Notes: generated from the sequence alone by a model not told the origin. Positions 24,785 to 48,541 are shown, numbered from the stretch's first letter. The stretch is DNA of 64,000 nt from an uncultured beta proteobacterium (GCA_903875135.1 CAIQUZ010000037.1:19606-83605); one strand, 5' to 3'. Numbers and translations are program-made.

Positions 24785-24789
24785 GCGAT

Positions 24790-25044: not shown

Positions 25045-25053
25045 TGACCTATT

Positions 25054-26319
25054 TTACGTCTTCCAAGAGGCTTGTTCCTGGCCTTTTTCTAAATAAGCTT
25101 GCATCACCTTGGTTGGATCCCCAAGAAGCTTATCTTTCCAATGACCTAATTTCACTTTAGTTTGTATTAAACCCCGCATTGCACCAATATGATCAGTCAT
25201 GCCAAGGCTTGTGGCTCCAATTAAAATATCATCTGAAAATTCTAAATGAAGATACTTATAATTTAACTCATCAACCAACTCTGCGTGCTCACCACCATCG
25301 ATACCAGCCCAAAGACCAAAAGAAGAGGAAATCAAACCTAAGGTGTCCAACACATTCACTTGGAAACTTCCAGTGCTATTCGATACTCCACCACTCATAT
25401 TCACCGCAGCGATCGTCGCCTGATCCGCAGCATTGGGCTGTATCGCGTTAATCATTCGCTGCCCTGTTGAGAAATCAATACTTTCGGTAACGTCACCTGC
25501 GGCATAGATGTCAGGAATCGAAGTCTGCATATATTCATTGACGAAAATACCTTTTTCGCAATGGATTCCAGAGCCTTTTAAAAATTCAATATTCGCTTTT
25601 ATACCTGTAGCAGAAATAATCGTATCAACAATCAATGTCTCTCCATTGGAAAGACTGACTTTTAAAGCGTCACCCTCTTTAACAATTTTTTCTACTTTGG
25701 TTTGCGTAAAGACTTTGACGCCTTTTGACTCCACCCATTTTTTGATCATTTGACCGGCCGTTTGGGTCATCATGCGAGGCACCATCCGATTTTCCATTTC
25801 GACAACCGTCAGCTGAATATCTTTACTCGCAAGCGCTTCTAAAATAATACAACCAATAAAGCCCGCACCCATTTGTAAAACTCTTGTGCCTGAGTCTGTT
25901 TTTTCATGAATATTTCTTGCATCTTCCAACGTCCAGCAAGAGTAAATACCAGGTAAGTCCATTCCTTGAATCGGTGGACGAATCGGTGTAGAACCCGTCG
26001 CAATCAGCAATTTATCATATGCAAGTTCTTGCGTTTGACCATGAAGGTCAATGGTGATTTTTTTTAACTCGGGCAAAACCGAAATAACTTTAGCCTGAAG
26101 TAACTCAATGTTCAGTTTTTTAAAGTGGTCTTGATCTTTACGTAAATAGGTTCCTGACTCTTGAATGTTGCCAATCAATAAATAAGGAATGGCCATCCTT
26201 GAATAAGGAGGCTCTGACTCTGCTCCAATCAAAATGATTTGATCATGGGGTGAGCGTTTACGAATTGTCTCCGCAGCCACAACACCTGCTGGACCATTAC
26301 CGATAATGACATGTTTCAT
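25054..26319 (-). CDS. aorC: FAD/NAD oxidoreductase subunit of AOR
   Basis: IIGNGPAG, YDKLLIATGS, MGAGFIG, IYAAGD; 421 aa, directly after aorB. Confidence 0.85.
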   Translation of the reverse strand: MKHVIIGNGPAGVVAAETIRKRSPHDQIILIGAESEPPYSRMAIPYLLIGNIQESGTYLRKDQDHFKKLNIELLQAKVISVLPELKKITIDLHGQTQELAYDKLLIATGSTPIRPPIQGMDLPGIYSCWTLEDARNIHEKTDSGTRVLQMGAGFIGCIILEALASKDIQLTVVEMENRMVPRMMTQTAGQMIKKWVESKGVKVFTQTKVEKIVKEGDALKVSLSNGETLIVDTIISATGIKANIEFLKGSGIHCEKGIFVNEYMQTSIPDIYAAGDVTESIDFSTGQRMINAIQPNAADQATIAAVNMSGGVSNSTGSFQVNVLDTLGLISSSFGLWAGIDGGEHAELVDELNYKYLHLEFSDDILIGATSLGMTDHIGAMRGLIQTKVKLGHWKDKLLGDPTKVMQAYLEKGQEQASWKT

Positions 26320-26323
26320 GAAT

Positions 26324-28171: not shown

Positions 28172-28204
28172 AGTGTGTTTCCTCGATGAATTCGTTAAGT
28201 TATA

Positions 28205-28678
28205 TTAAGCGTTCGTTTGATTACCTAGTTTTGCAGCCCAGGTACGCATTTTGTCTAAACCTGTCCAATCAGCATCCACATAGGTGATGGCGCCAGTTGG
28301 GCATGCATCAGCACAAGCAGGGTCTCCTCCACATAAATCACATTTTTGTACTTTGCCAGTTTCCTGAACATAATTGACTGTACCAAATGGGCAAGAAATA
28401 GTGCAGACTTTACATCCTACACAAACGTCCTCTATAACCACTTTTGCTCCAGTAGCAGCATCAATTCGGATCGCATCAACAGGACAAGCTTTTAAGCACC
28501 AAGCCTCATCACATTGTGTGCACGTATAGGGAACTTTTTTACCTGTTTCATGAAAATCAAATACCTTGATTCTGGATTTGGCAGGATTAAATACTCCGTA
28601 ATTCTCAAAACTACAAGCCATCTCGCACTGTAAACAACCAGTACATTTATCCGCATTAATATGAAGTGATTTCTGCAT
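28205..28678 (-). CDS. aorA: 4x[4Fe-4S] polyferredoxin subunit of AOR
   Basis: CTGCLQCEMAC, CTQCDEAWCLKACP, CVGCKVCTISCP, KCDLCGGDPACADACP; C-terminal helix WTGLDKMRTWAAKL. Confidence 0.9.
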   Translation of the reverse strand: MQKSLHINADKCTGCLQCEMACSFENYGVFNPAKSRIKVFDFHETGKKVPYTCTQCDEAWCLKACPVDAIRIDAATGAKVVIEDVCVGCKVCTISCPFGTVNYVQETGKVQKCDLCGGDPACADACPTGAITYVDADWTGLDKMRTWAAKLGNQTNA

Positions 28679-31719: not shown

Positions 31720-33183
31720 ATGTCAGATACCAATAACTACTTACAACTTCTTCCTAAACATCGTGACCTTTATTATGGAGGATCTTGGCATCAACCGATG
31801 GGTGGTTATCTAGAAACCATGAACCCAGCGACTGGCGAATCTTTAGGCTTATGCGCTGAAGCAAATGCACAAGATGTAGATGCAGCAGTTCAAGCTGCAC
31901 ACGCAGGTTTTTCTGTATGGAAAAAATTCAAACCCCTAGAACGTGCTGCTCTATTAAAAAAGGTGGCGGTAGTACTTCGTGAAAATGCTTTTGAACTAGC
32001 TATGATCGACGCAGCTAATTGTGGTAACCCGATTAGTGAAATGCAACGAGATGCACTCATCGCTGCAGCTCAAATCGATTTTTATGCTGGCTTAGCCACA
32101 GAAATCAAAGGCGAAACCTTACCAATGGGAGATGATATTCTGAATTATTCGGTACGGGAGCCTTATGGTGTTTGTGCACGTATTGTTGCGTATAACCACC
32201 CGATTATGTTTACAGCCGCAAAAATGGCGCCGCCATTAATTGCGGGCAATACAGTCATTATGAAGCCTCCTTATCAGGCTCCTTTATCAAGCTATCGTAT
32301 GATGGAACTGATTGACGGAATTCTCCCACCAGGTGTTCTTAACATCATTAGCTCAGGTGCTATAGGCGGACAAGCACTCGTCACTCATCCATTAGTCCCG
32401 CGTTTATCGCTGATTGGTAGCGTTCCTACTGGACGCGCTATAGCAAAAGCAGCGGCCGATCAGCTCAAACACGTCACTCTTGAATTGGGTGGTAAAAATG
32501 CCTGCATTATTTATCCTGATGCTGATCTCAGTAAAGCAATTACAGGCGCCATTAATGGGATGAACTTTACATGGTGTGGTCAAAGCTGTGGTTCTACATC
32601 ACGCCTATTTGTTCACTCCTCAATCTATAAACAAGTCATAGACGGTCTTCTTCAAGCTGTAAAACATTACAAACCGGGCATACCGACTGATATGGCCACC
32701 ACAATGGGGTCTATAGTTTCTAAAGCCCAATGGGGGAAAATTATGAACTATATCGAGATCGCAAAACAAGACGGTGCACAACTCATTTATGGTGGAAATG
32801 TACCAAGCACACCCTCACTAGCAAATGGTTGGTTTATTGAACCCACTATTTTTACTGGGGTTACTCAGAATATGCGAATTGCTAATGAAGAAGTTTTCGG
32901 CCCTATATTGTCTGTCATACAGTGGGATGATGAGGACCAAATGTTCGATCAAGTAAATGCTGTTGAATATGGTTTAACAGCCTCTATTTGGACCACAAAT
33001 CTATCAAAAGCACATCGTGCGGCTAGTCGTGTTCAAGCCGGGTATATCTGGGTTAATCACTCTAGTAGTCATTTTATTGGAGCATCTTTTGGAGGCTACA
33101 AACAATCTGGCATCGGTCGTGAAGAAGGCTTTGATGAATTATTTAGCTACTCACAACACAAAAACGTCCATGTAGTTTTGTAA
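31720..33183 (+). CDS. Aldehyde dehydrogenase, PhdK (2-carboxybenzaldehyde dehydrogenase)-like subfamily
   Basis: LELGGKNA, GMNFTWCGQSCGSTSRLFVH, EEVFGP, FGGYKQSGIGRE. Confidence 0.9.
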   Translation: MSDTNNYLQLLPKHRDLYYGGSWHQPMGGYLETMNPATGESLGLCAEANAQDVDAAVQAAHAGFSVWKKFKPLERAALLKKVAVVLRENAFELAMIDAANCGNPISEMQRDALIAAAQIDFYAGLATEIKGETLPMGDDILNYSVREPYGVCARIVAYNHPIMFTAAKMAPPLIAGNTVIMKPPYQAPLSSYRMMELIDGILPPGVLNIISSGAIGGQALVTHPLVPRLSLIGSVPTGRAIAKAAADQLKHVTLELGGKNACIIYPDADLSKAITGAINGMNFTWCGQSCGSTSRLFVHSSIYKQVIDGLLQAVKHYKPGIPTDMATTMGSIVSKAQWGKIMNYIEIAKQDGAQLIYGGNVPSTPSLANGWFIEPTIFTGVTQNMRIANEEVFGPILSVIQWDDEDQMFDQVNAVEYGLTASIWTTNLSKAHRAASRVQAGYIWVNHSSSHFIGASFGGYKQSGIGREEGFDELFSYSQHKNVHVVL

Positions 33184-33194
33184 TTAATGTTGAG

Positions 33195-34595
33195 TTACTC
33201 ATTAAAAAAAGAAAGTATCCACTCGTTCGTTTTTAGCGGTAAGTGTGGATTCTTTTCTAACTGCTCGCCCAAAGACACAACAGATTTTTGTAGGTTGGGT
33301 GCTAAATCTTTAGATAATAAGGAGATCTTTTCTAAGACTGTATGACGTTCTAATGGTCTTGCAGAACTCCCTAGAGCTGCCTCACAAAACTCAGAAATCT
33401 TGTCTCCATTCTTTAATTCAATGGTAACTTTAGCAGGGCGATCATAAGGCCAAGGACGTACATCTTTCATTTCTTGCATCACCACTTTATTTCTGACATT
33501 GGCAATGAGAGAATTCGACATACTTTCATGTAAAAAATTTTCTGTAGCGCTTGCACCGTTAATAATAGTGGCAGCTACAGCATGAGGGATCGAAAACTTC
33601 GCCGCCAGGGTTGTGACAGGATTGACATTATTAAAGTTCATTCCCATTTTAGAAACTTCTATGAGTACAGAGTGAATCGTATCTCCTCCGCGAAGATTGG
33701 GATGTGCTTTAAAGATGGTTTCTATGGCTTCCATGGATGCATGCGCATGATGACAAGAACCATACAATTTATGATAGCCAGCAGTAATCGTCCATTCTGT
33801 ACCCAAGTCCATACAAAGCTGATCTGGCTTCGAAGTTGCTCCAAAACCCATCTGATAAACATCATATGGGCCAGTGGGTGTTCCGTAAATATTAGCTTGA
33901 GCCATCTCGCAAGCAAAGTGTCCTAACCAAGCGCCAGCTGCAGGCCAAGCATTTCGAATTAAGGCCCCTTGAATCGGATGACTATAAGGCCCAGGTGAAA
34001 CCATTGTGCAAGCACCAGTCAATGCATTCATGAAAAGTGTTTTATCAAATTTCATTAGAGCAGCATATCCAGCAGCCGCACAAACTGTATTAAATACCCC
34101 ATGAGGGTGCAACCTTGGTAAAGTCTCAGGCCAAGACCTTGCAAAGCGCGTTCCAATTTCATAAGCAACAACTACTGCCCTTAACATCTCTTGTACAGAT
34201 ATATCATTCGCTTGAGCAGCAGCTAAAATAAGGGGTTGACTGAGCGCCCCTGGATGGACTGCAGTTCTAGTGTATCCATCATCTAACTCGTTCCAAGTAA
34301 TCGCTAATCCATTAGCAAGCGCCGCATTCATTAAAGAAGTCTTTGGCCCACCCTTACGAAAAACTGTTGCTGTCTCATCACTTTTTTGACCCAATAATTG
34401 GCTGTGATAAGTATTTACTTCAGGTTCATTAGATGCAGATAAGGTAGCAGCAATGTTGTCACCCAAAATCAAAACAGCGTGTTGTATCACCTGATTTGGA
34501 ATATCCTCATAGCGAAGACTCGTTGCCCAATCTGATAACTTTAATAAATTTTCTGCAACACTATTTTTAATATCGAGCTGATTAACTACATTCAT
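33195..34595 (-). CDS. MmgE/PrpD-family protein (not clearly canonical PrpD); start ATG 34595 overlaps the upstream TGA
   Basis: ALANGLAITWNELDDG...VHPG, AVVVAYEIG, YHKLYGSCHHAHA, AKFSIPHAVA. Confidence 0.85.
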   Translation of the reverse strand: MNVVNQLDIKNSVAENLLKLSDWATSLRYEDIPNQVIQHAVLILGDNIAATLSASNEPEVNTYHSQLLGQKSDETATVFRKGGPKTSLMNAALANGLAITWNELDDGYTRTAVHPGALSQPLILAAAQANDISVQEMLRAVVVAYEIGTRFARSWPETLPRLHPHGVFNTVCAAAGYAALMKFDKTLFMNALTGACTMVSPGPYSHPIQGALIRNAWPAAGAWLGHFACEMAQANIYGTPTGPYDVYQMGFGATSKPDQLCMDLGTEWTITAGYHKLYGSCHHAHASMEAIETIFKAHPNLRGGDTIHSVLIEVSKMGMNFNNVNPVTTLAAKFSIPHAVAATIINGASATENFLHESMSNSLIANVRNKVVMQEMKDVRPWPYDRPAKVTIELKNGDKISEFCEAALGSSARPLERHTVLEKISLLSKDLAPNLQKSVVSLGEQLEKNPHLPLKTNEWILSFFNE

Positions 34596-36982
34596 ACTGT
34601 AACTTTTCTGAGTGCATGCCAAATTTTATTCGAGGTAAATGGCATTTCTACACCCTTCACACCAATCGAGCCCAGAGCATCGATCATGGCGCTGGTGATT
34701 GCCGCAGGGGCGCCAATAGTTCCCGATTCGCCACAACCCTTAACCCCTAAAGGGTTGTGTGTACATGGCTGAGATTCATCTGCCTCAGAAATAAAATCTG
34801 GCAATATGTCGGCCCTAGGCATCGCATAATCCATAAAAGAACCCGTCATGATTTGACCAGAGTCCGGCTCATAAACGGCACTTTCAAATAGAGCTTGGCC
34901 AATACCCTGAGCTATTGCGCCATGCACTTGCCCTTCAACAATCATTGGATTAATCACTGTTCCTACATCATCGATGGCTATGTAAGATAACAATTTCGTC
35001 ACACCAGTTTGTGGATCAATTTCTATTTCACAAGCTTGTGCTCCATTGGACCATGTTAAATTAGGTGGATCAAAAAAAGCATTTTCGTGGAGAACCGGCT
35101 CCATTCCAATCGGCAAATTATGAGCATAGGTAGCAGCGCGTGAAACCTGATACCAATCTAATTTTTCTTGCGTTGTTTTGCAAACGAAATGACCTAGGTT
35201 ATCAATAATCTGATGTTCCACATCGGCAACATCACAAGCAAGAAGGTGAGCCGCAAGTAATTTTGATTTATTCAAAATTTTCGTGCAAGACATCGTAATC
35301 GCTCCACCAGCAATCACCATTGATCTTGATCCAAAAGTTCCAGTTCCATATGGAACTCTGCCTGTATCCCCTTCAACTAACTCAATCATAGATAAAGGTA
35401 GCCCTATATGTGAAGCAATGACTTGCGGAAATGTCGTCGCATGTGCTTGACCATGACTGTGCGTACCACACATTAAAAGAATACTTCCATCGGCAGATAC
35501 TCGGATATCGGCCGAATCAAAAAAACCTGCCCGAGCGCCAAACATTCCGGCATATTTAGAAGGTGCGACTCCAGAACTTTCTAGAAAATAACAAATACCA
35601 AAACCGCGTATCATGCCATTTACTTTTGAAAGTGCACGACGTTTTTCAAAACCAGCAAAATCAGAAACAACAAGCGCTCTGTCAAATAGCCGTTGAAAAT
35701 CTCCACTATCGTAAATTGGACCTAACGGTGTAGAGTAAGGCATTTCACTCGATTTGATGAAATTTTTACGACGCAGTTCCATGCGGTCCATACCCGTTTG
35801 CACCGCAGCTTCTTCGATTAATCGCTCTAATACAAAACATGCTTCAGGACGCCCTGCGCCACGATACGCATCCGTTGGAACCGTATTGGTGAACATCGCA
35901 TCAACCTCTGCGAAAACTGCAGGAATCTTATAAGGACCAGATAAAACCGCAGTGTAAACCGTTGTTGGAACTGCCGCCCCAACAGTAGATATGTATGCCC
36001 CAACAGCAGCATAGGTCTTCACTCGAACACCTAAAATATAACCCTTGTCATCAAGAGCCATTTCCGCGGTGGTCATATGATCACGAGCTTGATAGTCACT
36101 AATAAATGCTTCACTTCTCGTTGAAGTCCACTTTACGGTGATCTTTAGTTTCTTACAAGCCCAGGCTAAAAGTGTTTCTTCAGGATATAACTTACCCTTC
36201 GTACCAAAACCACCACCAACATCAGGTGCAATTACACGTATTGAGTTTTCCGGTAGATTTAATTGCTCCGATGTGAGCTTGCGAATATGGTGCGGAACTT
36301 GTGTGGCGGACCAAATTGTGAGCTCATGACCATCATCTCCAAGAGAGGGAGATACCTGTGCAACAACAGCTCTTGGTTCGATGGCAGCACAAACAATCCG
36401 ATGATTTTTAATTTCTACACGAATCTGGTGCGCCGCCTTTGCAAAGGCAGCATCAACAGGCTCTTTAGAGCCACGGTGAAATCTTACACAAAGATTATTT
36501 GGCGCTTGTGAATGAAGCTGTGGGGCAGTTGCAAGTGCTGCTTTCTCAACATTGACTACTGCATCTAATACTTCAAAATCTACTTCTATCAATTCAGTAG
36601 CATCAATAGCTTGATGAACAGTCTTGGCGATGACCATCGCCACTATTTCACCAACGTGACGCACGCGATCCACCGTCATGGAATATCGTGGAGGTTCATT
36701 CATTTGCGTGCCATTTGCCCCAGGAATCATCCATAGTGGCGTCATCTTACCGACACCATCATTAAATAAGTCTTCCCCAGTTAACACAGCAATTACGCCT
36801 AGAGACATTTGCGCCGCAGAAACATCAATGCTCTTAATAAGTGCATGCGCGTGAGGCGATCTTAAAAAAGCACAGTAATATGTGTTTTCAGGAAGAATAT
36901 CGGCGACAAATTGACCACGTCCTTTTAATAGACGATTATCTTCTCTTCTTAAAACCGTTTTACCAATTCCTTGTGGATGCAT
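34592..36982 (-). CDS. Xanthine-dehydrogenase-family molybdopterin large subunit (form II CoxL-like)
   Basis: RREDNRLLKGRGQFVAD, DVGGGFGTKG, AYRGAGRPEA, HSHGQAHAT, GTFGSRS, GQVHGAIAQGIGQ, KGCGESG. Confidence 0.93.
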   Translation of the reverse strand: MHPQGIGKTVLRREDNRLLKGRGQFVADILPENTYYCAFLRSPHAHALIKSIDVSAAQMSLGVIAVLTGEDLFNDGVGKMTPLWMIPGANGTQMNEPPRYSMTVDRVRHVGEIVAMVIAKTVHQAIDATELIEVDFEVLDAVVNVEKAALATAPQLHSQAPNNLCVRFHRGSKEPVDAAFAKAAHQIRVEIKNHRIVCAAIEPRAVVAQVSPSLGDDGHELTIWSATQVPHHIRKLTSEQLNLPENSIRVIAPDVGGGFGTKGKLYPEETLLAWACKKLKITVKWTSTRSEAFISDYQARDHMTTAEMALDDKGYILGVRVKTYAAVGAYISTVGAAVPTTVYTAVLSGPYKIPAVFAEVDAMFTNTVPTDAYRGAGRPEACFVLERLIEEAAVQTGMDRMELRRKNFIKSSEMPYSTPLGPIYDSGDFQRLFDRALVVSDFAGFEKRRALSKVNGMIRGFGICYFLESSGVAPSKYAGMFGARAGFFDSADIRVSADGSILLMCGTHSHGQAHATTFPQVIASHIGLPLSMIELVEGDTGRVPYGTGTFGSRSMVIAGGAITMSCTKILNKSKLLAAHLLACDVADVEHQIIDNLGHFVCKTTQEKLDWYQVSRAATYAHNLPIGMEPVLHENAFFDPPNLTWSNGAQACEIEIDPQTGVTKLLSYIAIDDVGTVINPMIVEGQVHGAIAQGIGQALFESAVYEPDSGQIMTGSFMDYAMPRADILPDFISEADESQPCTHNPLGVKGCGESGTIGAPAAITSAMIDALGSIGVKGVEMPFTSNKIWHALRKVTV

Positions 36983-37108
36983 GTAATTCTCTCAATTAAT
37001 AATGGGACCTAAAAATATGTTAGCTTAATAACCTAAAGATTCAAAATAATGTTATCTTAGTTTTTATTTCCTCACAAGGAATTCCAAAATTTATAAATCG
37101 GAGCTTTT

Positions 37109-38077
37109 ATGAACTTCAAGAAAAACTGTTTAATCTCTTTAATCATATTGTTGCTAGCTAGTTTTTCGTCTTTAAGTATGGCCCAACAAAAAATGAAAAT
37201 GGGGCTTTTTATTGCATCTTCAGCTCTCCCATATTTTATTGCTAAAGAAAGAGGTTACTTTGCTGCAGAGGGTCTTGACGTTGAGGGAATACCCTTAGCA
37301 ACACAACCTTTGGTTGTTCAAGGAATTGTTACTGGTGATTTAGATGCTGGCTCTAACCTGCTCTCACTAGAAGGTGCAAATATCAACGCCTTGAGACCAG
37401 ATACATTGAAGTACATCTCTTTAAATTGTCAAAATGTAAAATATCAACTCGAAGCTTACGTCGTTCCAGTCAATAGCACTATTAAAACCTTAGCTGAGTT
37501 GAAGGGCAAACGCATTATGTCTGCCCCAGGCCCGGGTAACCTTTTTGTGGCAAAAGGCGTGCTTAAAGCAGTTGGTCTTGATGAAAAAGATTATCAGATG
37601 CAAGAACAACAAATGAGCGTTCACATTGGTGGTCTTCAGTCTGGTCAATTTGATGCCGCATATACTCTTGAACCGATCGTGAGCATGATGGTTTCTCAAG
37701 GAGTTGGTCGTAAACTCGAAAGTGGTGTAATTGCAAAATACATGCTTGGCAGACCCGATGCCTGTGCGGTACTTGGTGGTGGCGTTCTCAGTTCTAAATT
37801 TATCAAAGAATATCCACAAGCGGCAGAACGATTTGCTAGAGCATGGGCCAAGGCATTAAATGACGGTAATAACGATCCTAAGGCTCGCGATCTCCTAGTG
37901 AAGTATATGAATACATCAGCAAGCATTGCTCAAACTGTACCGCTATCTCACTACAACATGATCCGTGATTTAAAACCTCAAGATCTTGCTGACTTTCAGA
38001 ACTTAATTGATCAGGCAACAGCTTATGGGTTGGTCAAAGAAAAAATTGATGCTAAATCATTTTTAAAAGTCTATTAA
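37109..38077 (+). CDS. NitT/TauT (NMT1/SsuA-like) ABC substrate-binding protein
   Basis: Signal peptide; LPYFIAKERGYFAAEGLDVE, LAELKGKRI, GQFDAAYTLEP. Confidence 0.88.
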   Translation: MNFKKNCLISLIILLLASFSSLSMAQQKMKMGLFIASSALPYFIAKERGYFAAEGLDVEGIPLATQPLVVQGIVTGDLDAGSNLLSLEGANINALRPDTLKYISLNCQNVKYQLEAYVVPVNSTIKTLAELKGKRIMSAPGPGNLFVAKGVLKAVGLDEKDYQMQEQQMSVHIGGLQSGQFDAAYTLEPIVSMMVSQGVGRKLESGVIAKYMLGRPDACAVLGGGVLSSKFIKEYPQAAERFARAWAKALNDGNNDPKARDLLVKYMNTSASIAQTVPLSHYNMIRDLKPQDLADFQNLIDQATAYGLVKEKIDAKSFLKVY

Positions 38078-38083
38078 TATCCG

Positions 38084-38857
38084 ATGAGTTTGATGCCGTA
38101 TAAAAAATATCTGGAGCCTCTAGTTCCCTTAATTGGGGCTCTAGTTTTTGTCTTAATCTGGTGGCTTAGCACCACGTTAAAATTGGTAGATCCTTTCTTA
38201 TTGCCCTCTCCACTCGCCGCAGGAAAAGCAATGTGGACCGGCATAACCAGTGGGACCTTATCTCTCGATATGATCATCACGATCCGTCGAACGATTTATG
38301 CCTTTTTAATTGCTGTGGTGATCTGCGTTCCACTTGGACTTATTTTAGGTAGTTCTGAGCGTCTCTATCGATCCTGCGAATTTGTGATTGATTTCTTTCG
38401 CTCAACGCCTGCTTCAGCTTTATTCCCCCTCTTTTTAGTCATATTAGGTGTTGGAGAAAATACCAAAATTGCAGTAGCCGCTTTTGGCGCCGGACTTTTG
38501 ATTTTGTTCAATACCGCATACGGAGTCATGAACGCCAGAAAAGTACGGCAAGCTGCAGCAAGGGTCATGGGGGCCTCAAGCCTGAAGATTCTATATGGTG
38601 TAACTCTACTTGAATCACTCCCTCAAACATTTGTAGGAATGCGTTCCGGAATTTCCTTTTCACTAGTGATTGTGATTGTTGCAGAGATGTTTATCGGCTC
38701 TACAGATGGCTTAGGCCAACGTGTGATTAATGCTCAAATGATTTTTAATATGCCGGAAATGTACGCTACGATTTTTAGTGCCGGAGCATTAGGTTACGGA
38801 TTAAATCTTCTCTTCATTCTCGCGGAAAGACACTTCGTCCATTGGGGTGGAAAATAA
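38084..38857 (+). CDS. NitT/TauT ABC permease
   Basis: FLLPSP, DFFRSTPASALFPLF, LESLPQTFVGMR, IVIVAEMF. Confidence 0.9.
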   Translation: MSLMPYKKYLEPLVPLIGALVFVLIWWLSTTLKLVDPFLLPSPLAAGKAMWTGITSGTLSLDMIITIRRTIYAFLIAVVICVPLGLILGSSERLYRSCEFVIDFFRSTPASALFPLFLVILGVGENTKIAVAAFGAGLLILFNTAYGVMNARKVRQAAARVMGASSLKILYGVTLLESLPQTFVGMRSGISFSLVIVIVAEMFIGSTDGLGQRVINAQMIFNMPEMYATIFSAGALGYGLNLLFILAERHFVHWGGK

Positions 38858-38881
38858 ACGTGTATTTCCAAATTTAATTAA

Positions 38882-39649
38882 TTGATTATGACAGCACATA
38901 TCCAAATTCGTGGGTTGAGTAAAACTTTTGCTGGGCAAACGCTATATTCAAATTTTAATCTCGATTTTTCTCATGGGAAAATCACATCGATCTTTGGTCC
39001 GAATGGTTGCGGAAAATCGACGTTGATTAATATGATTTCTGGACTAACCCCAATGGATGCTGGAGAAGTTCTGTTTGATGGTAAAACCCTAGCTCAAACG
39101 GTTATCGGCTACGTCTTTCAAAACTACCGAGACGCTCTTTTCCCATGGAAAAAAGCCATCGACAATATCAAATATCCTCTCCAAATTGCAAAACAGTCTA
39201 TCGGTGAGATTGAAGCTAGAACCCAAGAATTAATTCAGTCGTTTGATGTCCGCTTTGATCTCAACCGATATCCCTACGAATTATCAGGTGGACAGCAACA
39301 ATTAATTTCCATTATGAGAGCTCTAGCTCCAAATCCAGAAGTACTTTTTTTGGATGAGCCATTTTCTGCACTCGATTATGAAATGACCCTGTTTATGCGG
39401 GATAAACTACAGGCGATTTTTGAAGCGACTAAAACCACCATGATTCTTGTCTCTCATGATCTCGATGAAGCAGTGTATTTATCAGACCACATTCTGATGT
39501 TGACTCGAAGGCCTACTCAAATCGCGCGTGAAATTGAATTTAATGCGCCAAGACCCCGTCAACCCCTCACTCTCACATCAGAACTATTTAATCAAGTAAA
39601 AGGTCAATGTCTTGAAATCTTCCAAAAAGAAATCAAAATAATCGATTAG
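38882..39649 (+). CDS. NitT/TauT ABC ATPase
   Basis: GPNGCGKST, VFQNYRDALFPW, YPYELSGGQQQ, LDEPFSALD, VSHDLDEA. Confidence 0.93.
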   Translation: MIMTAHIQIRGLSKTFAGQTLYSNFNLDFSHGKITSIFGPNGCGKSTLINMISGLTPMDAGEVLFDGKTLAQTVIGYVFQNYRDALFPWKKAIDNIKYPLQIAKQSIGEIEARTQELIQSFDVRFDLNRYPYELSGGQQQLISIMRALAPNPEVLFLDEPFSALDYEMTLFMRDKLQAIFEATKTTMILVSHDLDEAVYLSDHILMLTRRPTQIAREIEFNAPRPRQPLTLTSELFNQVKGQCLEIFQKEIKIID

Positions 39650-39682
39650 AATTAATTCATATTTTAAAAAAGGAGATGATCT

Positions 39683-40159
39683 ATGAGCATCCAAGTATCG
39701 ATGATCATTAATGGCCAATCTGTTCAACATGAAGTGGAAGAGCGAACACTCTTGGTAAATTTTATCCGCGATTATTGTCGCTTAACAGGCACTCATGTTG
39801 GCTGCGATACAGCACAATGCGGTGCGTGCACAATCCATTTAAATGGTCGAGCCATCAAAAGTTGCAGCATTCTAGCGATGCAAGCAGAAGGTGCAACTAT
39901 TACAACAATTGAAGGAGTTTCATCGGATGATCAATTACATCCAATGCAAGAAGCCTTTAAAACACATCATGGGCTACAGTGTGGCTATTGCACTCCCGGA
40001 ATGATTATGAGTGCGATTGACCTTGTCAATCAATTTCCTAATCCCAGTAAGGAACTCATCCGGGAACAACTCGATGGCAACTTATGCCGTTGCACTGGTT
40101 ATCACAATATCGTAATTGCCATTCAAGAGGCGGCCAAAGTTATGAGCCCTTCTAACTAA
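39683..40159 (+). CDS. Molybdenum hydroxylase small subunit (2x[2Fe-2S], CoxS-like)
   Basis: [15 protein letters not shown]...[19 protein letters not shown]. Confidence 0.94.
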
Positions 40160-40176
40160 ATTTCTCGGAGCGATTT

Positions 40177-40971
40177 ATGTATCCATTTTCATTTCATCAC
40201 ACTCAAAAAATTACTGACACTGTCTCTTTAAAAAAAGAATCTCCAGAGGGAAAATATATCGCTGGTGGTCAAAGTTTAATTGGGGTAATGAAGCTAAGAC
40301 TTGATAAACCGTCCGAATTAATTAACCTAGGATCCATTCCTGAACTTACCGGCATTTGTGTAGATGGGAAGACCTTAACAATCGGAGCAATGGCGAGACA
40401 TGCCGAAGTTGCCGCATCTGCTGATGTGAAAAATTGCATCCCTGGTCTATCCCAACTCGCGGGCCTCATTGCCGATAGAATGGTGCGCAATATGGGGACA
40501 ATCGGCGGCTCTGTCGCTAACAATGATCCTTCTGCGGATTATCCTGCTGGCTTGTTGGGATTAAATGCCACCATCATTACCAATCAACGTGAAATCAAAG
40601 CGGATGATTTTTTTCTCGGGATGTTTGAAACCGCTCTAGAGCCAAGTGAATTGATCCAATCGATTCGTTTTACAGCACCGATTCAATCTGCCTATGCTAA
40701 ATTCAAACACCCCGCCTCTAGATACGCCGTCGTCGGTGTTTTTGTCGCTCAATTTCCGGGCGAAGTCAGAGTGGCTGTCACAGGAGCCGGCGCATCAGTT
40801 TTCCGACTCACAGAAGTTGAAAAAGCTCTTTCTAACAACTTCTCTGCCAGTGCATTAGATCCAATACATATTTCTGCTGATGGGCTTAACTCAGACTTTT
40901 TTGCAGATTCAGAATACCGAGCCCATTTAATCAAATTAATGGCAATACAAGCAGTTAACCAAGCACAATAA
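40177..40971 (+). CDS. Molybdenum hydroxylase medium subunit (FAD, CoxM-like)
   Basis: [48 protein letters not shown]. Confidence 0.93.
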
Positions 40972-40988
40972 CTCTCTTAGGAATTGCT

Positions 40989-42083
40989 ATGTCAATTGAT
41001 GTCGTTAAAGTTGAAATTAAAAGTGTATCGGATGCCTCAGGGCTATTACAACATATAGAATCTGGAAGATTTAAGGCTGATGACGTCATCGCTATTATTG
41101 GAAAAACTGAGGGTAATGGTGGAGTAAATGATTTCACAAGAATCTTATCAGATCATGCTTTTCGAGACGTTTTATTGAAACACGGCACGCGGACTACAGA
41201 GCAGATTCGGGAAATCCCGATGGTTTGGTCAGGTGGTTGTGATGGCGTCATCACACCACATGCCACTATTTTTACTCAAGTTAACGATACTTCAAGTTCA
41301 AAAGAAAGTCGTCTAGTAATTGGTACAGCACTTAGCCCGCGTATTTATCCAGAAGATATTGGTCGTTTGTCAATGGTAGAAAAAGTGCGTCAAGGTGTGC
41401 TGTTAGCAATGAAAAATGCAGGGATTGATGATCCAAAAGATGTGCATTACGTGCAGACAAAAACACCACTGCTGACCATTGAATCTGTCCTTGATGCCAA
41501 ATCACGTGGAAAGACTCTAGCCTGCGAAGTTCACGACTCCATGGGTGTTTCCAATGGCACTACGGCCCTAGGAATTGCGGTTGCACTAGGCGAAATCTCA
41601 ATGCCAACAGAAGAAGATATCTGCGAGAATCACGCCTTGTTTTCTTCAGTAGCATCCTGCTCTTCTGGCGTTGAATTAGATTTCGCACAAATTGTTTTAC
41701 TCGGCAATAAAACTGGCGCAGGAGGAAAATTTAGGATCGGTCACGGCATTATGAGAGATGCTATTGATATCGATGGTATCTATGATGCGATTCGGTCCGC
41801 TGGCTTAACCTTACCTGAGCGCCCCAGAGCAAGCGACTTAAACGGCAAACTAGTTAACTGCTTCATTAAATGTGAGGCGGATCAAACTGGTAAGCTTCGT
41901 GGTCGTCGACAAATTATGTTAGATGACTCCGATGTGCATCATCATCGACACTCTAAAGCTGCCGTTGGTGGAGTAGCTGCTGCCGCGATTGGTGATCCCG
42001 CTGTCTTCGTATCTGTTGATGCTATGCACCAAGGTCCGCACGGTGGCGGTCCCGTTATCGCGATTGTTGATTTGGGGACTTAA
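40989..42083 (+). CDS. bar: Ring-opening amidohydrolase of the AtzD/barbiturase (Toblerone-fold) family, barbiturase-like
   Basis: [40 protein letters not shown] (Asn189 where cyanuric acid hydrolases have Arg), [36 protein letters not shown]; collinear end to end with Rhodococcus barbiturase as I recall it. Confidence 0.88.
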
Positions 42084-42092
42084 ACAGTTTTC

Positions 42093-42572
42093 TTATTGAT
42101 AGATTTTCTGATCAAAGAAACTCATACCTGCAATATAGCGGCTACCATCAGACATGTCCGGGAGTGGTCCCTTCTCGATTTTTCCTTCAAAGGTTAATTC
42201 GAGTTGGACACCGCTTGGATCATAAATAAATAGTTGCCAAATCGTCGTGTTCGGCACTAAAAATTCACGAAAAGGTAATTTCATGTCAATAAATTTTTGA
42301 CGGTACTCATGGTAACCCGAGCAAGAAAATGAGATATGATCAATCGCTGCAGTCCCTAATACTGTCTTACCATCTTCACCAAGCGCTGGTCCACCAGCGT
42401 AACAATGTAATATCGCTTGCCCACCAGGAATCGGAGCAGCAAGCCACGCTCCCGGAAAACCAAAGTCCGGACGATAAATATCAATCAAACCTAATACCTT
42501 AGTATAAAAATCTTTAGTTGCCTCTAAATTATTCGTTTTAACTGCAATATGAAACAAACCATTCGTAATCAT
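42093..42572 (-). CDS. VOC / glyoxalase-family metalloprotein
   Basis: FHIAV...FYTKVLGL, GAWL, LHCY, IDHISF, YDPSGVQLEL (His/His/His/Glu metal set). Confidence 0.88.
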   Translation of the reverse strand: MITNGLFHIAVKTNNLEATKDFYTKVLGLIDIYRPDFGFPGAWLAAPIPGGQAILHCYAGGPALGEDGKTVLGTAAIDHISFSCSGYHEYRQKFIDMKLPFREFLVPNTTIWQLFIYDPSGVQLELTFEGKIEKGPLPDMSDGSRYIAGMSFFDQKIYQ

Positions 42573-42585
42573 GAACTATTCCTGT

Positions 42586-42969
42586 TTAAATTTTATCGAT
42601 CAAACTAACATGGGCTGAAACAATTCTCCAACCTTCAGGTGTCCTTACCCAAGTTTGCGATTGACGCCCCAATTTTCCTGGAACAGTATCTCTTTCAAAT
42701 AAGGTATTCGCTGTTGCCAAGTCATTTCCAAAAGTAGTAATTACTGTTTTACTGATACTTCTTAATAAACCTTTCGACGGTCTTGCGGCTCGAAAAGCTG
42801 CTATTTCGTCAAAACCATATAAGTTTTCATTCATGCCATAACGGATAACTAATGGATTATTCCAAAATGAGTTATCTAAAACATCAATCTTATTGTGAAT
42901 CAAGGCGTCCTCATATTGATCAAAAAGAGCTTGAACTTCTGCGTGGATATTAGGGATGTTAATTTGCAT
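42586..42969 (-). CDS. AtzH/HpxZ-like (DUF3225, NTF2-like) protein
   Basis: FDQYEDALIHN...FW...IRYG..ENLYGFDEIAAFRAAR...GRQSQTWVR.PEGWRIVSAHVS. Confidence 0.9.
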   Translation of the reverse strand: MQINIPNIHAEVQALFDQYEDALIHNKIDVLDNSFWNNPLVIRYGMNENLYGFDEIAAFRAARPSKGLLRSISKTVITTFGNDLATANTLFERDTVPGKLGRQSQTWVRTPEGWRIVSAHVSLIDKI

Positions 42970-43193
42970 GGGATATTCTCAAATTCATTAGGTATTAATA
43001 GTTGATTCTAGTATAAGCCGAATAGAAATACGATAGCTCCCCTACGAATAAACCTCCATTGATTTTCTCCACAAAAGGCACTAAGCTCATCTTGAGTGAG
43101 ATATTCAGATAGAAATGGACAAAGCCTTGATCACCTAGTTCATCTGATCAATCAAATCTCTTCAATGACTTAAATAATGAATGGGGAACATCA

Positions 43194-44228
43194 ATGCAAC
43201 AACAAATAATAAAAATTATTCTTGGCTTGAGTGTAGTCATTATTGGAAACGTGTTAGCCCAAATCAAACCACTTGAGATGAACATCGCTCAAGTTGACTC
43301 CTTCCATATTGGTGGGCGATTAGTTGAAATCTCAGGCAAACCGATTAAAGAAGTTGTCTTTAGCCCAGGCAGTGCCCCAGCAAAGATTGATCCTAACGGA
43401 AAATACCTCGTTGAACAAATGTACGTTCAGTACTTTATTCCAAAAGATGTCAAGCATCAATTACCCATCCTCCTCTGGCATGGTGGTGGCCTCACGGGGG
43501 TCACGTATGAAACAACTCCGGATGGTAGACCTGGTTGGCAACAATACTTTATTAGTCAGGGTTGGAAAACTTACGTTTCAGATGCTGTTGAACGAGGGCG
43601 TTCAGGTTGGGCGTCGCCAGATATTTGGCCTTCAGATCCACAATTCTTAACGATTGATAACCCATGGCAACGATTTAGAATTGGCGCAAATCCATGGAGT
43701 GATGACCCAGTTAAAAGAGCTCAACACCCAGGCAGTCAGTTTCCTGCTGAAGGTTATGTCAATTTTATGCGTCAAGTCGTTCCACGCTGGACAACCACAG
43801 ATGAGGCCAGTATAGCCGCCTATACGGAATTAGTTGACAAAGTCTGCCCCTGCGTTGTTTTAGTTCATAGCCAAGGAGGTCAGTTTGGTCAAAAAGTTGC
43901 CCAAGCCCGTCCTGATAAAGTGAAAGCATTAATTTTGGTTGAACCTGCGGGATTTGGTGACCCAGCAAAGGCGAGTGCAATGAAAAATATACCGATACTT
44001 ACCGTGTATGGCGACAATATTGATCTTGATTCTCGCTGGCCAAAAATCCGACAAACACAACTAGATTTGAATCAAAAATATATTACAGCAGGAGCTAGTG
44101 TCGATGTGATTAACCTACCAGAAATAGGCATTAAAGGTAACTCACACATGATGATGATGGATCGTAACAATCTGCAAATTGCCGGCATCATCGAAGAATG
44201 GCTAAAGAAAAAAGGTTTTAAAGACTGA
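43194..44228 (+). CDS. Putative exported alpha/beta-hydrolase (esterase/lactonase-like)
   Basis: Signal peptide; LWHGGGLTG..YETTPDGRPGW, VHSQGG nucleophile elbow, GD, GNSHMMM catalytic His. Confidence 0.85.
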   Translation: MQQQIIKIILGLSVVIIGNVLAQIKPLEMNIAQVDSFHIGGRLVEISGKPIKEVVFSPGSAPAKIDPNGKYLVEQMYVQYFIPKDVKHQLPILLWHGGGLTGVTYETTPDGRPGWQQYFISQGWKTYVSDAVERGRSGWASPDIWPSDPQFLTIDNPWQRFRIGANPWSDDPVKRAQHPGSQFPAEGYVNFMRQVVPRWTTTDEASIAAYTELVDKVCPCVVLVHSQGGQFGQKVAQARPDKVKALILVEPAGFGDPAKASAMKNIPILTVYGDNIDLDSRWPKIRQTQLDLNQKYITAGASVDVINLPEIGIKGNSHMMMMDRNNLQIAGIIEEWLKKKGFKD

Positions 44229-44259
44229 TGATTCGATCTATCGAATGCACCTTGATGAG

Positions 44260-45135
44260 TTATTTAAATAACTCATCAAGGTGTTTCTCGTAATCGTAAT
44301 AATTGATACTTTCGTATAACTCATTTCTCGTTTGCATTTGCCCAATCAAATTTTTTTGTGTTCCCTCAGACCGAATGGTTTGATAAACATGCTCTGCTGC
44401 TTTATTCATCGCTCTAAAAGCTGATAATGGGTAAAGTGCCATGCTGACTCCAACTGACCTCAATTCATCGATAGTGAACAATGGCGTTGATCCAAACTCA
44501 GTAATATTGGCTAAAACTGGAACTTTGGTCTTTTCGACAAATTGTTGATATTGACCTAGTTCAGTAACTGCTTCTGGAAACAACATATCTGCACCCGCCT
44601 CAACATAAGCAAGCACTCTATCTATGCAAGCATTGATACCTTCTGCTGCTAAAGAGTCGGTTCTTGCCATCACCACAAAATCCTCACTCGACTTAGCATC
44701 AATAGCTGCTTTGATACGATCGACCATTTCTGCACAACTCACAATTTGTTTATTGGGTCGATGACCACAACGTTTAGCACCAACTTGATCTTCAATATGA
44801 ATCGCTGCCACCCCAGCTTTTTCTAATGAACGAACCGTCCTAGCCACATTAAATGCCGATGACCCAAATCCTGTATCCACATCAACTAGCAAAGGTAAAG
44901 TACAAATATCGGTGATTCTTCTGGCATCAATCAGCACATCTTCTAAGTTAGAAATTCCAAGATCAGGCAAGCCTAAAGATCCCGCAGACACTCCCCCGCC
45001 AGATAAATAAATAGCTTTGTAACCAGCTCGCTGAGCCAGTAACGCATGGTTACCATTCACTGCACCAATGACTTGAAGTGGTGATTCATTCAAAATTGCT
45101 TGACGAAACAAACTACCCGGAGATACTCGACTCAT
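44260..45135 (-). CDS. prpB: 2-methylisocitrate lyase
   Basis: [54 protein letters not shown]. Confidence 0.92.
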
Positions 45136-46219: not shown

Positions 46220-48541
46220 CTACGCCTTGACTGGACCAAACTGTGGGGGAGGAACTCGTCTTTTAGAAGCTGCTTCATAAGCAGAAGCCACTCTGATTAA
46301 ACGGTCTTCCATTCCCGGCTCCACCCGAAATACCAAAGAAAATGGTAAGCCAGCACCTTCTAATTTTGTCGGGGTTTGGCTCGTTTTTCCGAGATATTTT
46401 TTTCGATCTTCAGATAACTCAAAAACTGCATCGTAGGCTATATCAACAAATCCCGCAGGCACTAAAACTTCCGTAAGTCCAGCATTGGGTCCGTACAGTA
46501 ATTCGTTACGAAGGTCAGTAATTTCACCAGGCTCATCAGGCCATCCAATCTTCGCAGGTGGCAAAGGCGTATGGAGCCTTACCAAAACATCAAGTTTGTT
46601 TTCAAGAATCACCATCATATCGACTCTTCGCAGTAGCTCTCTGAGCATAATGCGCTCATTAATCCCTTGTCTGCCACCTAAAGGATTCCTGGGATCCGTC
46701 GTCTCTTCCCAATTTTTAAAAGCTGATCGCTGATCATCACCCCAAAATTTGGAGCGTTGATTTAATGTCGGCCAATCGATGAGCGACTCTTTAAATCCAA
46801 GAACATTCCAATCCTGCGCTCGGCGACTCAAATATTGCTTGATGTGATAGCGAAAAGAGTTGGCTAATATTTGATGTTGAACTGTAGCAATCGTTAAATT
46901 TTGGGGTGGCTGGATATTGAGATCAGCCAACTCCACACAATAATCAATCGCCGTCATTTTTCCGGAGCCAAAGATTTTTCCTGGGGCAAATTCAGTCGGC
47001 ATAATTTGCTCAGCAAACTCAGGAAATACCGGCTGCCTGGCTTCATTTAATCGAAATAAAATATCTGGCATAAAGACTGGGACTAACCTTGCTAGGGCTT
47101 TCGTAAAATCAATTCCCATTTGTTCTATTGTGTTATCTCTTTGCCAAAGAGTATGCGATGACTCCACTAAAGTCGCACCAAGATGATTACCAAGTATCTC
47201 TTTAATCTCTAGGCTTGCCTTAGTAATGATCGGTTCTACTGATTTAATTCCGGGGTTTATCATGGATTCACGGATCACCCCAATACGGGTTCCTTTTAAA
47301 AGGCCCACGGTATTCCCTTTAATCACATGATCGAGATAGCGTGTTTGTAAGACAGAGGATCGCGGGACAGTTGTGTAGGGGTCTCTAGGATCGTAATACC
47401 CATTGTCATCATCTTTAAGCGCATCCAAAATACGTGTGCAGTCTTCCAAAGTGCGACTTAAGATTCCCGTTCGATCACAATAGATATCCGCACCAATAGC
47501 CCCACCATCAAAACCTAGCATTGCCTTATGGGGCAAAATCAATGCTAATGCATTATGGTTGGCAGGACCTCTTGTCGACATCCGTGTTTCTTCACCTAAA
47601 CTAGCCATCACCAAATTAGCACTAACCGATACGCCTGATCCCGAACTAGAACCTAAGGATGCTGAGCGCGTTGTGTCATAGGGATTCGATGGATTACCAC
47701 CCCAAGTAGAGCGTTGATAACCATGTACGGATGGCAAGATCTGGTGAGGTTGGTTTTTACCTCCTGGATCACCTGCACGACCGTTATATTCTGTCATGAC
47801 CGCTTTGGCGAAAATAATCGCCCCTTTTTGACGAAGCTGGTCGACTAAAAGATGATCTCTGGCCGGAAAGTCGATATCGTAAGCAGCATCACCACCTCCC
47901 GTAGAACGCATGTCTTTCGTATCAAAAGCATCTTTGAAGGAAAATGTCACGCCATATAAAGGTAACTTTTCAAGATCGGGTTGTTGGCCATACTGCGCAT
48001 CTAAAGCCGCTGCTTGCTCAAGAGCGTCCGGATATTGCCGAAATAATTCACACATCGGAGGAGCACCTTTAGGCAAGGGCCCTTTTGAAGGATGCAAATC
48101 ATAATCACCACGACAAGTAACTGATCGTTCTCCACGTAGATTAATCGTTGATAAAGCATTGAGTTGACCAGCATTGGGTTTGCCTACAATCATTCCGAAC
48201 TGTTGGTAAATACTAGGGTCTGAGGCGGTTGACTCCATTCTGCCAAACTCAATGTCTGGACCAATATATCGATCTAAGTTTGGCAATAACTTAGAAGCAT
48301 TTAAGGTCTCTTGATCAAACCGTATCGGCTGACCACCACGTAAAACACCTGTGTGAGCAGGAATTTGGCTACCATCCCTTGTCACCAGCAAGCTTGAGGG
48401 TCCATTAAACTGCCGTATACGAGCCAGATATTGCTGAACTACTGCCACACAACTGGTTCTCCCCTCTTGAATTGCAAGATGCAGATCTGAAATTGTTGCT
48501 TCTTCAACTTGAAAGGGAATATTAGACTGACTTTGCGACAC
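46220..48541 (-). CDS. Amidase-signature family protein, unusually long (773 aa)
   Basis: VEEATISDL, PLYGVTFSFKD (catalytic Lys), NPYD, GSSSGSG (cis-Ser), GEETRMSTRGPA (nucleophile Ser), C-terminal EDRLIRVASAYE.ASKRRVPP. Confidence 0.88.
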   Translation of the reverse strand: MSQSQSNIPFQVEEATISDLHLAIQEGRTSCVAVVQQYLARIRQFNGPSSLLVTRDGSQIPAHTGVLRGGQPIRFDQETLNASKLLPNLDRYIGPDIEFGRMESTASDPSIYQQFGMIVGKPNAGQLNALSTINLRGERSVTCRGDYDLHPSKGPLPKGAPPMCELFRQYPDALEQAAALDAQYGQQPDLEKLPLYGVTFSFKDAFDTKDMRSTGGGDAAYDIDFPARDHLLVDQLRQKGAIIFAKAVMTEYNGRAGDPGGKNQPHQILPSVHGYQRSTWGGNPSNPYDTTRSASLGSSSGSGVSVSANLVMASLGEETRMSTRGPANHNALALILPHKAMLGFDGGAIGADIYCDRTGILSRTLEDCTRILDALKDDDNGYYDPRDPYTTVPRSSVLQTRYLDHVIKGNTVGLLKGTRIGVIRESMINPGIKSVEPIITKASLEIKEILGNHLGATLVESSHTLWQRDNTIEQMGIDFTKALARLVPVFMPDILFRLNEARQPVFPEFAEQIMPTEFAPGKIFGSGKMTAIDYCVELADLNIQPPQNLTIATVQHQILANSFRYHIKQYLSRRAQDWNVLGFKESLIDWPTLNQRSKFWGDDQRSAFKNWEETTDPRNPLGGRQGINERIMLRELLRRVDMMVILENKLDVLVRLHTPLPPAKIGWPDEPGEITDLRNELLYGPNAGLTEVLVPAGFVDIAYDAVFELSEDRKKYLGKTSQTPTKLEGAGLPFSLVFRVEPGMEDRLIRVASAYEAASKRRVPPPQFGPVKA

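Follow-up and report, generated by a model that had tools for sequence, protein, structure and literature searches.

By what means might a freshwater betaproteobacterium oxidize a pyrimidine base and then open its ring? The question is raised by ten adjoining genes at positions 33195–42969 of a 64,000-nucleotide stretch of DNA from an uncultured beta proteobacterium (GCA_903875135.1 CAIQUZ010000037.1:19606-83605; the whole stretch is hereafter designated the window). An initial annotation had read them as a candidate route from uracil or thymine via barbiturate to urea, having noted a NitT/TauT ATP-binding cassette (ABC) transporter, molybdenum (Mo)-hydroxylase S (small) and M (medium) subunits and a barbiturase-like gene in one operon, a divergent gene for the L (large) subunit, an AtzH/HpxZ-like gene, and urease in the same window. 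The enzyme activities of oxidative pyrimidine breakdown have been on record since the 1950s, and its actinobacterial form in Rhodococcus erythropolis JCM 3132 and related species consists of uracil/thymine dehydrogenase (EC 1.17.99.4), barbiturase (EC 3.5.2.1; PDB 5HWE) and ureidomalonase (EC 3.5.1.95). In the literature searched, only the barbiturase of the oxidative route has an assigned gene, and no gene assignment was found for uracil/thymine dehydrogenase EC 1.17.99.4 or for ureidomalonase.

We found that the block is a horizontally mobile accessory island. Its products very probably hydroxylate a nitrogen heterocycle, which is then opened by a hydrolase of the Toblerone fold. As to the compound, we lean towards an accessory catabolic module for a pyrimidine-type heterocycle, most likely uracil and/or thymine.

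Predicted hydrolase and hydroxylase

The hydrolase is a full-length member of the AtzD/barbiturase family (PF09663, 464 bits over residues 5–361; TIGR02714, 470 bits). Among solved structures, it matched the R. erythropolis barbiturase 5HWE with 496.6 bits and 64% identity, as against 301 bits and 44% identity for the best cyanuric acid hydrolase, 6BUM, and in a tree it was nested inside the barbiturase-type clade. At the five specificity positions of the family (AtzD 195, 321, 325, 345, and 346), cyanuric acid hydrolases carry Arg-Thr-Arg-Gly-Gly, and barbiturases, which constitute Group VI of Peat et al. 2013, carry Asn-His-Lys-Val-Ser/Ala (PMC3758960). The window protein has N189-H319-K323-V343-D344, that is, four of the five barbiturase residues with Asp as the fifth, a pattern recurring in 82 of the 108 AtzD-family sequences collected. 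Moreover, alignment with the Rhodococcus barbiturase and the Moorella cyanuric acid hydrolase showed that the three Ser-Lys dyads and the invariant first Arg are kept (K39, R51, S81, K158, S223, K294, and S342). The sequence thus points to a hydrolase of the barbiturase type, not of the cyanuric acid type, and the barbiturase-like assignment of the initial annotation is upheld. The label "cyanuric acid amidohydrolase AtzD", suggested by an NCBIfam equivalog model (443 versus a cut-off of 360), was rejected on the specificity residues and the similarity; with barbiturase-type residues and such closeness to 5HWE, the model must be regarded as over-inclusive.

The active-site loop of the hydroxylase L subunit reads AYRGAGR, which is form-II CoxL-like, and not AYXCSFR as in CO (carbon monoxide) dehydrogenase. 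The subunit scored below every NCBIfam equivalog cut-off (TIGR02416, 546 versus 991), and among solved structures it comes nearest to CoxL, quinoline 2-oxidoreductase (1T3Q), and 6-hydroxypseudooxynicotine dehydrogenase (7DQX). The loop, the cut-offs, and these relatives together indicate a three-subunit N-heterocycle-type hydroxylase rather than a CO dehydrogenase. A true (form I) CO dehydrogenase is ruled out by the loop and the family cut-offs. With 1T3Q and 7DQX (403–427 bits) the window enzyme shares the L/M/S architecture and the AYRGAGR-type loop, whereas its genes are split over a divergent promoter, with a transporter before S/M and with L always followed by a gene for an MmgE/PrpD-family protein (hereafter PrpD-like). 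Its linkage to the hydrolase makes L/M/S a candidate pyrimidine (uracil/thymine) hydroxylase, an assignment that we hold with modest confidence. Two database labels, "cyanuric acid amidohydrolase" for the hydrolase and "carbon-monoxide dehydrogenase" for the L subunit, are corrected by these analyses.

The region comprises eleven features (ten genes and one intergenic gap) in three transcription units, as follows.

33195–34595, minus strand: MmgE/PrpD-family protein, 466 residues (Pfam PF03972 and PF19305; open reading frame open up to TTG 34622)
34592–36982, minus strand: Mo-hydroxylase L subunit, molybdopterin-binding, xanthine-dehydrogenase family (Pfam PF01315, PF02738, and PF20256)
36983–37108, no strand: divergent intergenic region, 126 bp, AT-rich, presumed from sequence reading to contain the promoters for the two divergent transcription units
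37109–38077, plus strand: periplasmic binding protein of the NitT/TauT-type ABC importer, NMT1/THI5-like (Pfam PF09084 and PF13379)
38084–38857, plus strand: permease of the ABC importer (Pfam PF00528; TauC/SsuC-like NCBIfam matches below cut-off)
38882–39649, plus strand: ATPase of the ABC importer (Pfam PF00005)
39683–40159, plus strand: hydroxylase S subunit, two [2Fe-2S] clusters (Pfam PF01799 and PF00111)
40177–40971, plus strand: hydroxylase M subunit, binding flavin adenine dinucleotide (FAD) (Pfam PF00941)
40989–42083, plus strand: barbiturase-type Toblerone-fold ring-opening amidohydrolase of the AtzD/barbiturase family (PF09663)
42093–42572, minus strand: VOC protein of the glyoxalase/dioxygenase fold (Pfam PF00903)
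42586–42969, minus strand: AtzH/HpxZ-like NTF2-fold protein (PF11533; NCBIfam HpxZ, 186.5 bits versus a cut-off of 135)

The unit of L and PrpD-like genes is divergent from the six-gene plus-strand operon of transporter, S/M, and hydrolase genes, in which the gaps measure 6–33 nt and the hydrolase gene starts 17 nt after the M gene; the VOC and AtzH-like pair on the minus strand converges on the hydrolase gene. The probable start of the PrpD-like protein is ATG 34595, in an ATGA overlap with the stop of the L-subunit gene, to which the PrpD-like gene is translationally coupled, and the proteins of congeners also have 466 residues. All the genes listed by the initial annotation were found where it had placed them, tightly packed; it had left out the PrpD-like and VOC genes, both of which belong to the conserved block described below. 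The binding protein (37109–38077) has a signal peptide ending ...SLSMA/QQ, and a search of solved structures for its ligand gave a distant SsuA match only. No Rfam match to a riboswitch or other RNA element was obtained in 32500–44500, and promoter and terminator scans gave nothing above shuffle expectation, consensus promoters in the gap at 36983–37108 included.

The closest hydroxylase paralogue in the same genome (G000 contig C89, L099:9054-16799; M 45%, S 58%, and L 35% identical) likewise faces a divergent operon, which holds PrpD-family, Ldh_2, Bug, and metallo-beta-lactamase genes, and a DUF4440/NTF2-like gene lies nearby, making this locus a parallel architecture.

The accessory island and its conserved core

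The host is a small freshwater betaproteobacterium (genome of 2.7 Mb in 129 contigs, 92.8% complete) from a Burkholderiales genus, probably Polynucleobacter, of streamlined, planktonic bacteria with small genomes. Only 7 of the 241 species genomes of this genus carry the hydrolase, and exactly the same seven carry the L orthologue. Gene order from the PrpD-like to the AtzH-like gene is the same in the six other carriers, at 81–98% amino-acid identity; one of these, G238, is split across contigs, and only the AtzH-like, VOC, and hydrolase genes are readable there. The flanks of the block vary among carriers, those of the window (aldehyde dehydrogenase/thiamine pyrophosphate enzyme on one side and prpB/amidase on the other) being found in just two of the six. 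A collinear block with differing flanks marks the ten genes as one heritable unit, and the block 33195–42969 is a horizontally mobile accessory island. Hydroxylase, transporter, and hydrolase are inherited as one block in seven species, and the co-conservation on which the initial annotation had staked its proposal is supported. In an eighth genome of the genus (G090:C104:6464-7879), a decayed L gene with 71% identity and six in-frame stops was observed without the hydrolase, suggesting that this lineage has lost the island. The literature searched contained no fitness data and no relevant reports from the host genus.

The extent of the conserved unit became apparent from a metagenome search with the PrpD-like protein as the query, which gave 50 loci. 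An L orthologue (69–96% identical) lies directly before the PrpD-like gene in 32 of them, the L-PrpD pair having 55–96% identity, and is missing in only four loci having enough upstream sequence. Most of these core loci also carry the divergent binding protein-permease-ATPase-S-M operon, with binding-protein orthologues 72–98% identical. From this recurrence, the conserved unit consists of the transporter and S/M genes divergent from the L and PrpD-like genes. The barbiturase stands outside this core as a lineage-specific addition, lacking in the sister modules L106 and L108. These modules (L 84% and binding protein 88–90% identical; flanks unrelated) keep the transporter, L/M/S, PrpD-like, VOC, and AtzH genes, and the close relatives L103 and L104 have barbiturase, VOC, and AtzH all present.

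Ring-opening hydrolases have nevertheless joined this core more than once. Besides L114, L123, and L141, where a barbiturase-type gene lies a few kb from the core, about ten distant loci and one complete 6.9-Mb genome carry an FAD monooxygenase and a member of another Toblerone-fold subfamily downstream of the PrpD-like gene. Members of this subfamily have the signature R-Q-R-G-G, are 37–40% identical to the window hydrolase, and are accompanied by an amidase or a coenzyme A (CoA)-transferase. Altogether, an AtzD-family gene, of two different subfamilies, occurs in 14 of the 32 core loci, many of which lie on short contigs. Across 400 evenly sampled Burkholderiales genomes, the L orthologue (at least 61% identity) was present in seven, all from one family. 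Six of these seven have an AtzD-family gene (five within 2–6 kb), versus 19 of the 393 others (Fisher p = 2e-7 by genome and 1e-4 by genus, values that overstate the evidence since the genomes are related). The strongest evidence for a barbiturate- or cyanurate-like trione ring as the product, whether formed by the hydroxylase itself or one reaction later, is that ring-opening hydrolases of the same rare fold were recruited twice, independently, to one hydroxylase core.

The R-Q-R-G-G subgroup is always preceded by an FAD_binding_3 monooxygenase (L125:12872-15307, L128:12729-15068, and L150:17560-19872) and has no exact counterpart among the published specificity groups. For L relatives less than about 62% identical, the gene context is completely different. 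Separate L relatives of 47–54% identity were found in 53 of the 400 Burkholderiales genomes, and those of L151 and L152 (56–62%) stand without a PrpD-like gene and with no linked ABC permease or ATPase genes; relatives of the latter kind probably have another function.

Relatives of the window hydrolase extend far beyond the genus. When one genome per species was scanned, close relatives were found in at least 593 species genomes, and the best 80 (66–79% identity) came mostly from Alpha- and Betaproteobacteria, plus Rokubacteria and Actinobacteria; the initial statement that barbiturases are mainly known from Actinobacteria therefore reflects the older literature only. A cytosine deaminase gene neighbours the barbiturase-type gene in 11 loci, and Mo-hydroxylase genes, with L subunits from at least three separate lineages, lie within 10 kb of it in about 15; these neighbours tie the barbiturase clade to pyrimidine catabolism. 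Other neighbours are an amidase-signature amidase (25 loci), hydantoinase B (23), and hydantoinase A (15). At about 28 loci there is a paralogous NitT/TauT importer, whose permease is about 64% and binding protein 38–47% identical to those of the window.

A widespread proteobacterial cluster has the order LysR, then hydantoinase A-hydantoinase B-barbiturase-type hydrolase-NitT/TauT importer-amidase (L096:5881-15195, L097:5852-15266, and many of L001–L065). The window block resembles it in having a hydrolase of the same N-H-K-V-D clade (74–80% identity) and a paralogous importer, but lacks hydantoinase A/B and the amidase and has instead the Mo-hydroxylase/PrpD-like core, VOC, and AtzH-like genes. 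The hydantoinase A/B that stand beside the barbiturase in this cluster are of the ATP-dependent hydantoinase/oxoprolinase type. The HyuAB genes of the window itself (14039–17728), considered as their counterparts, were rejected at just 27–35% identity.

Possible fate of the opened ring

Of the known systems, the oxidative pyrimidine pathway of actinobacteria comes closest. The window block and the Rhodococcus pathway have in common a barbiturase-type hydrolase with the Ser-Lys dyads and the Asn/His/Lys/Val residues, a three-subunit Mo/FAD/FeS hydroxylase encoded beside it, and a predicted course from base to barbiturate to ureidomalonate. In contrast, the window host is betaproteobacterial, uptake would rely on a NitT/TauT ABC importer, the L subunit is of another lineage, and the fifth specificity residue is Asp. 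Furthermore, the block has PrpD-like, VOC, and AtzH-like genes in place of a ureidomalonase amidase. The amidases that flank barbiturase-type genes elsewhere have no member in the block, and no orthologue of them was found in the 92.8%-complete genome (best matches 27–36% identical), nor were AllG, FdrA, or a cytosine deaminase of the barbiturase-linked type found in it. In keeping with the different downstream enzyme set foreseen by the initial annotation, the usual amidase is lacking.

AllG/FdrA-like genes occur at nine barbiturase-type loci of Actinobacteria and a few Burkholderiales. These components of the oxamate-carbamoyltransferase type adjoin the barbiturase-type genes in L072–L079 (Actinomycetota) and in L022, L030, and L054 (Burkholderiales), suggesting phosphorolytic cleavage of ureidomalonate there.

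The AtzH-like protein aligned with AtzH of Pseudomonas sp. ADP (6BJT) over residues 1–124 without gaps (144.6 bits, about 58% identity read from the alignment). The nine residues that form the 1,3-dicarboxyurea pocket predicted for AtzH (Y22, R46, R63, R66, R73, F94, R96, Q106, and Q108; PMC6219798) are all conserved in it, at positions 19, 43, 60, 63, 70, 91, 93, 103, and 105. Since its nearest relatives outside the genus (67–71%) belong to canonical allophanate hydrolase (AtzF)-AtzG-AtzE-AtzH clusters, it is to be regarded as a true AtzH relative detached from its amidase. The block contains no AtzE/AtzG or allophanate hydrolase gene, and no amidase of the genome reaches the AtzE cut-offs. 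The likeness to the atzDGEHF system of Pseudomonas sp. ADP thus lies in a Toblerone-fold hydrolase beside an AtzH homologue with the whole predicted pocket and in parallel chemistry, whereas the window hydrolase has barbiturase residues, AtzE, AtzG, and AtzF are lacking, and a Mo-hydroxylase and a transporter are added. N-Carboxymalonamate is the CH2 analogue of 1,3-dicarboxyurea, and the same relation holds between barbiturate and cyanurate and between ureidomalonate and 1-carboxybiuret. By this analogy, N-carboxymalonamate would be the natural substrate of the AtzH-like protein, though no enzyme making it was identified. The AtzH-like/VOC pair persists in the barbiturase-less modules, which weakens the case for the pair as the ureidomalonate step, and in L107 an AtzH-like gene stands directly before a PrpD-like gene without a hydroxylase. 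The link of AtzH to the PrpD-like protein therefore seems no weaker than its link to the barbiturase.

Enzymes of the MmgE/PrpD family form enolate intermediates and act on C4-dicarboxylate substructures, the dicarboxylate-binding residues in the methylsuccinate isomerase of P. aeruginosa being His88, Glu91, His102, His152, Lys202, and Lys266 (PMC12290011). In distant alignments (E about 1e-8 to 1e-14), the PrpD-like protein keeps E103, H114, H163, and K276, and Thr100 and His206 replace the carboxylate ligands His88 and Lys202. Both replacements are invariant across the PrpD-like orthologue group and would fit, as a hint from sequence, a less anionic substrate. As for the VOC gene, it is present in the block in all congeners; immediately past the M gene, and in the same orientation, a homologue is found in the more distant loci L125, L140, and L147, and in L150 there is one beside M on the opposite strand. 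The VOC protein has no informative relative among solved structures.

In the pathway that we propose, the ABC importer with its NMT1-type binding protein would take up the base, and the Mo/FAD/[2Fe-2S] enzyme L/M/S, to judge from its linkage, would hydroxylate C6 to give barbiturate or 5-methylbarbiturate. The barbiturase-type hydrolase, from its identity to 5HWE and its specificity residues, would then open the ring to ureidomalonate. What follows is more speculative. A non-canonical set would replace the usual amidase for the opened chain; the PrpD-like protein may ketonise or decarboxylate a malonyl-type carbon acid, and the AtzH-like protein might strip the N-carboxyl group, probably from an N-carboxymalonamate-like intermediate. 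The nitrogen would in the end be set free as urea and/or ammonia, a urease and a urea transporter being encoded elsewhere in the genome. A more specific version seems to us doubtful, though worth stating. In it, oxidative pyrimidine breakdown would go on without an amidase, by an undescribed route made up of the PrpD-like, AtzH-like, and VOC proteins. The PrpD-like protein, always translationally coupled to the L subunit, would ketonise or decarboxylate a barbiturate- or ureidomalonate-type carbon acid, the AtzH homologue would remove the N-carboxyl group from an N-carboxymalonamate-like intermediate, and nitrogen would leave as ammonia with CO2, not as urea. If true, carbon-acid ketonisation or decarboxylation by the PrpD-like protein would be a new activity for the MmgE/PrpD family.

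Two further points of the initial annotation call for correction. The urease that it linked to the pathway (urease alpha at 3–821, with UrtA at 7310–8569) lies at least 24.6 kb from the cluster and outside the block conserved among congeners, and was rejected as a component of the system. That the pathway is self-contained is unproven, since no enzyme acting after ring opening was identified. The island stands out in that its hydroxylase is of a separate lineage and has a PrpD-like protein as obligatory partner, uptake would be by an ABC importer, its AtzH is detached, an amidase is lacking, and the block is clearly a mobile accessory element.

Two neighbouring regions of the window may be recorded. 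A 773-residue protein (46220–48541, minus strand), whose gene runs in the same direction as genes for a Bug-family receptor and a methylisocitrate-lyase-like protein, may be considered as a ureidomalonase; its amidase-signature domain is only partial (residues about 170–460), and this flank is found in some congeners only. At 24473–28678 (minus strand), genes for a polyferredoxin, a tungsten-type aldehyde:ferredoxin oxidoreductase (AOR), and an FAD/NAD reductase make up an AOR-like operon between a 13-gene heterocycle operon and the island; it is missing at the matching place in the congener L090.

Alternative explanations and significance

Several observations weigh against the proposed pathway, with uracil and/or thymine as its substrate. 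In the hydrolase, Asp stands at the fifth specificity position in place of Ser/Ala, and no assay of any member of the N-H-K-V-D clade was found in the literature searched. Neither the main proteobacterial nor the actinobacterial barbiturase-linked L subunits are orthologues of that of the window, and about ten CoxL-family paralogues in a 2.7-Mb genome make incidental adjacency likelier. No barbiturase was found within 21 kb in the sister modules L106 and L108, and several other core loci show no AtzD-family gene on the sequence available. Where the core stands beside the R-Q-R-G-G hydrolase and an FAD monooxygenase, the hydroxylase product is evidently not always fed directly to a barbiturase. 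Finally, with no ureidomalonase-type amidase, AllG, or FdrA found in the genome, the pathway is incomplete as read.

The Asp344 variant and the core loci without an AtzD-family gene would suit the degradation of some other N-heterocycle (an oxo-pyrimidine, a substituted uracil, or a pyridine/pyridazine dione), for which the Mo-hydroxylase/PrpD-like/transporter core would have evolved and in which the barbiturase-type enzyme opens the resulting barbiturate-like trione or a side product. Such a substrate would also accommodate the invariant L partner, the PrpD-like protein, which is superfluous in the classical uracil pathway, as well as the accessory genes that differ by lineage (two FAD monooxygenase types, R-Q-R-G-G hydrolases, CoA-transferases, and VOC). 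We nevertheless consider it a possible but rather unlikely explanation, because the hydrolase has 64% identity and four of five specificity residues in common with a barbiturate-specific enzyme, cytosine deaminase genes adjoin the same clade in 11 loci, and no biological source of barbiturate other than the oxidation of uracil is documented (PMC3758960). The numerous CoxL-family paralogues, the barbiturase-less sister modules L106/L108, and the database label "carbon-monoxide dehydrogenase" on L orthologues would fit an independent barbiturate-scavenging gene inserted incidentally in an unrelated Mo-hydroxylase operon for aldehyde, CO-like, or other oxidation. This is improbable in view of the L subunit without the AYXCSFR motif, the position of the barbiturase gene 17 nt after M on the same strand, the AtzD-family gene in six of seven core genomes against a background of about 5%, and the two Toblerone-fold subfamilies independently recruited beside orthologues of the same core.

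A cyanuric acid/s-triazine pathway, in which the AtzD-family enzyme hydrolyses cyanuric acid and the AtzH-like protein acts as in atzDGEHF, is very improbable. The score above the NCBIfam equivalog cut-off and the AtzH homologue with all nine pocket residues alongside agree with it; against these stand the Asn, His, Lys, and Val residues in place of Arg-Thr-Arg-Gly-Gly, a similarity to barbiturase that far exceeds that to every cyanuric acid hydrolase of solved structure, the lack of AtzE/AtzG and allophanate hydrolase in the block, and a Mo-hydroxylase that has no role in that pathway.

The reading that we favour, oxidation and ring opening of uracil and/or thymine, makes the island a compact, conserved, and tractable candidate for the proteobacterial hydroxylase genes. 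Barbiturase-type enzymes are evidently common in freshwater and soil Proteobacteria, and the three unexplained partners, the PrpD-like, AtzH-like, and VOC proteins, may define another fate of the opened ring. As an accessory trait in 7 of 241 species, the island bears on the partitioning of dissolved organic nitrogen among strains of a streamlined planktonic genus.

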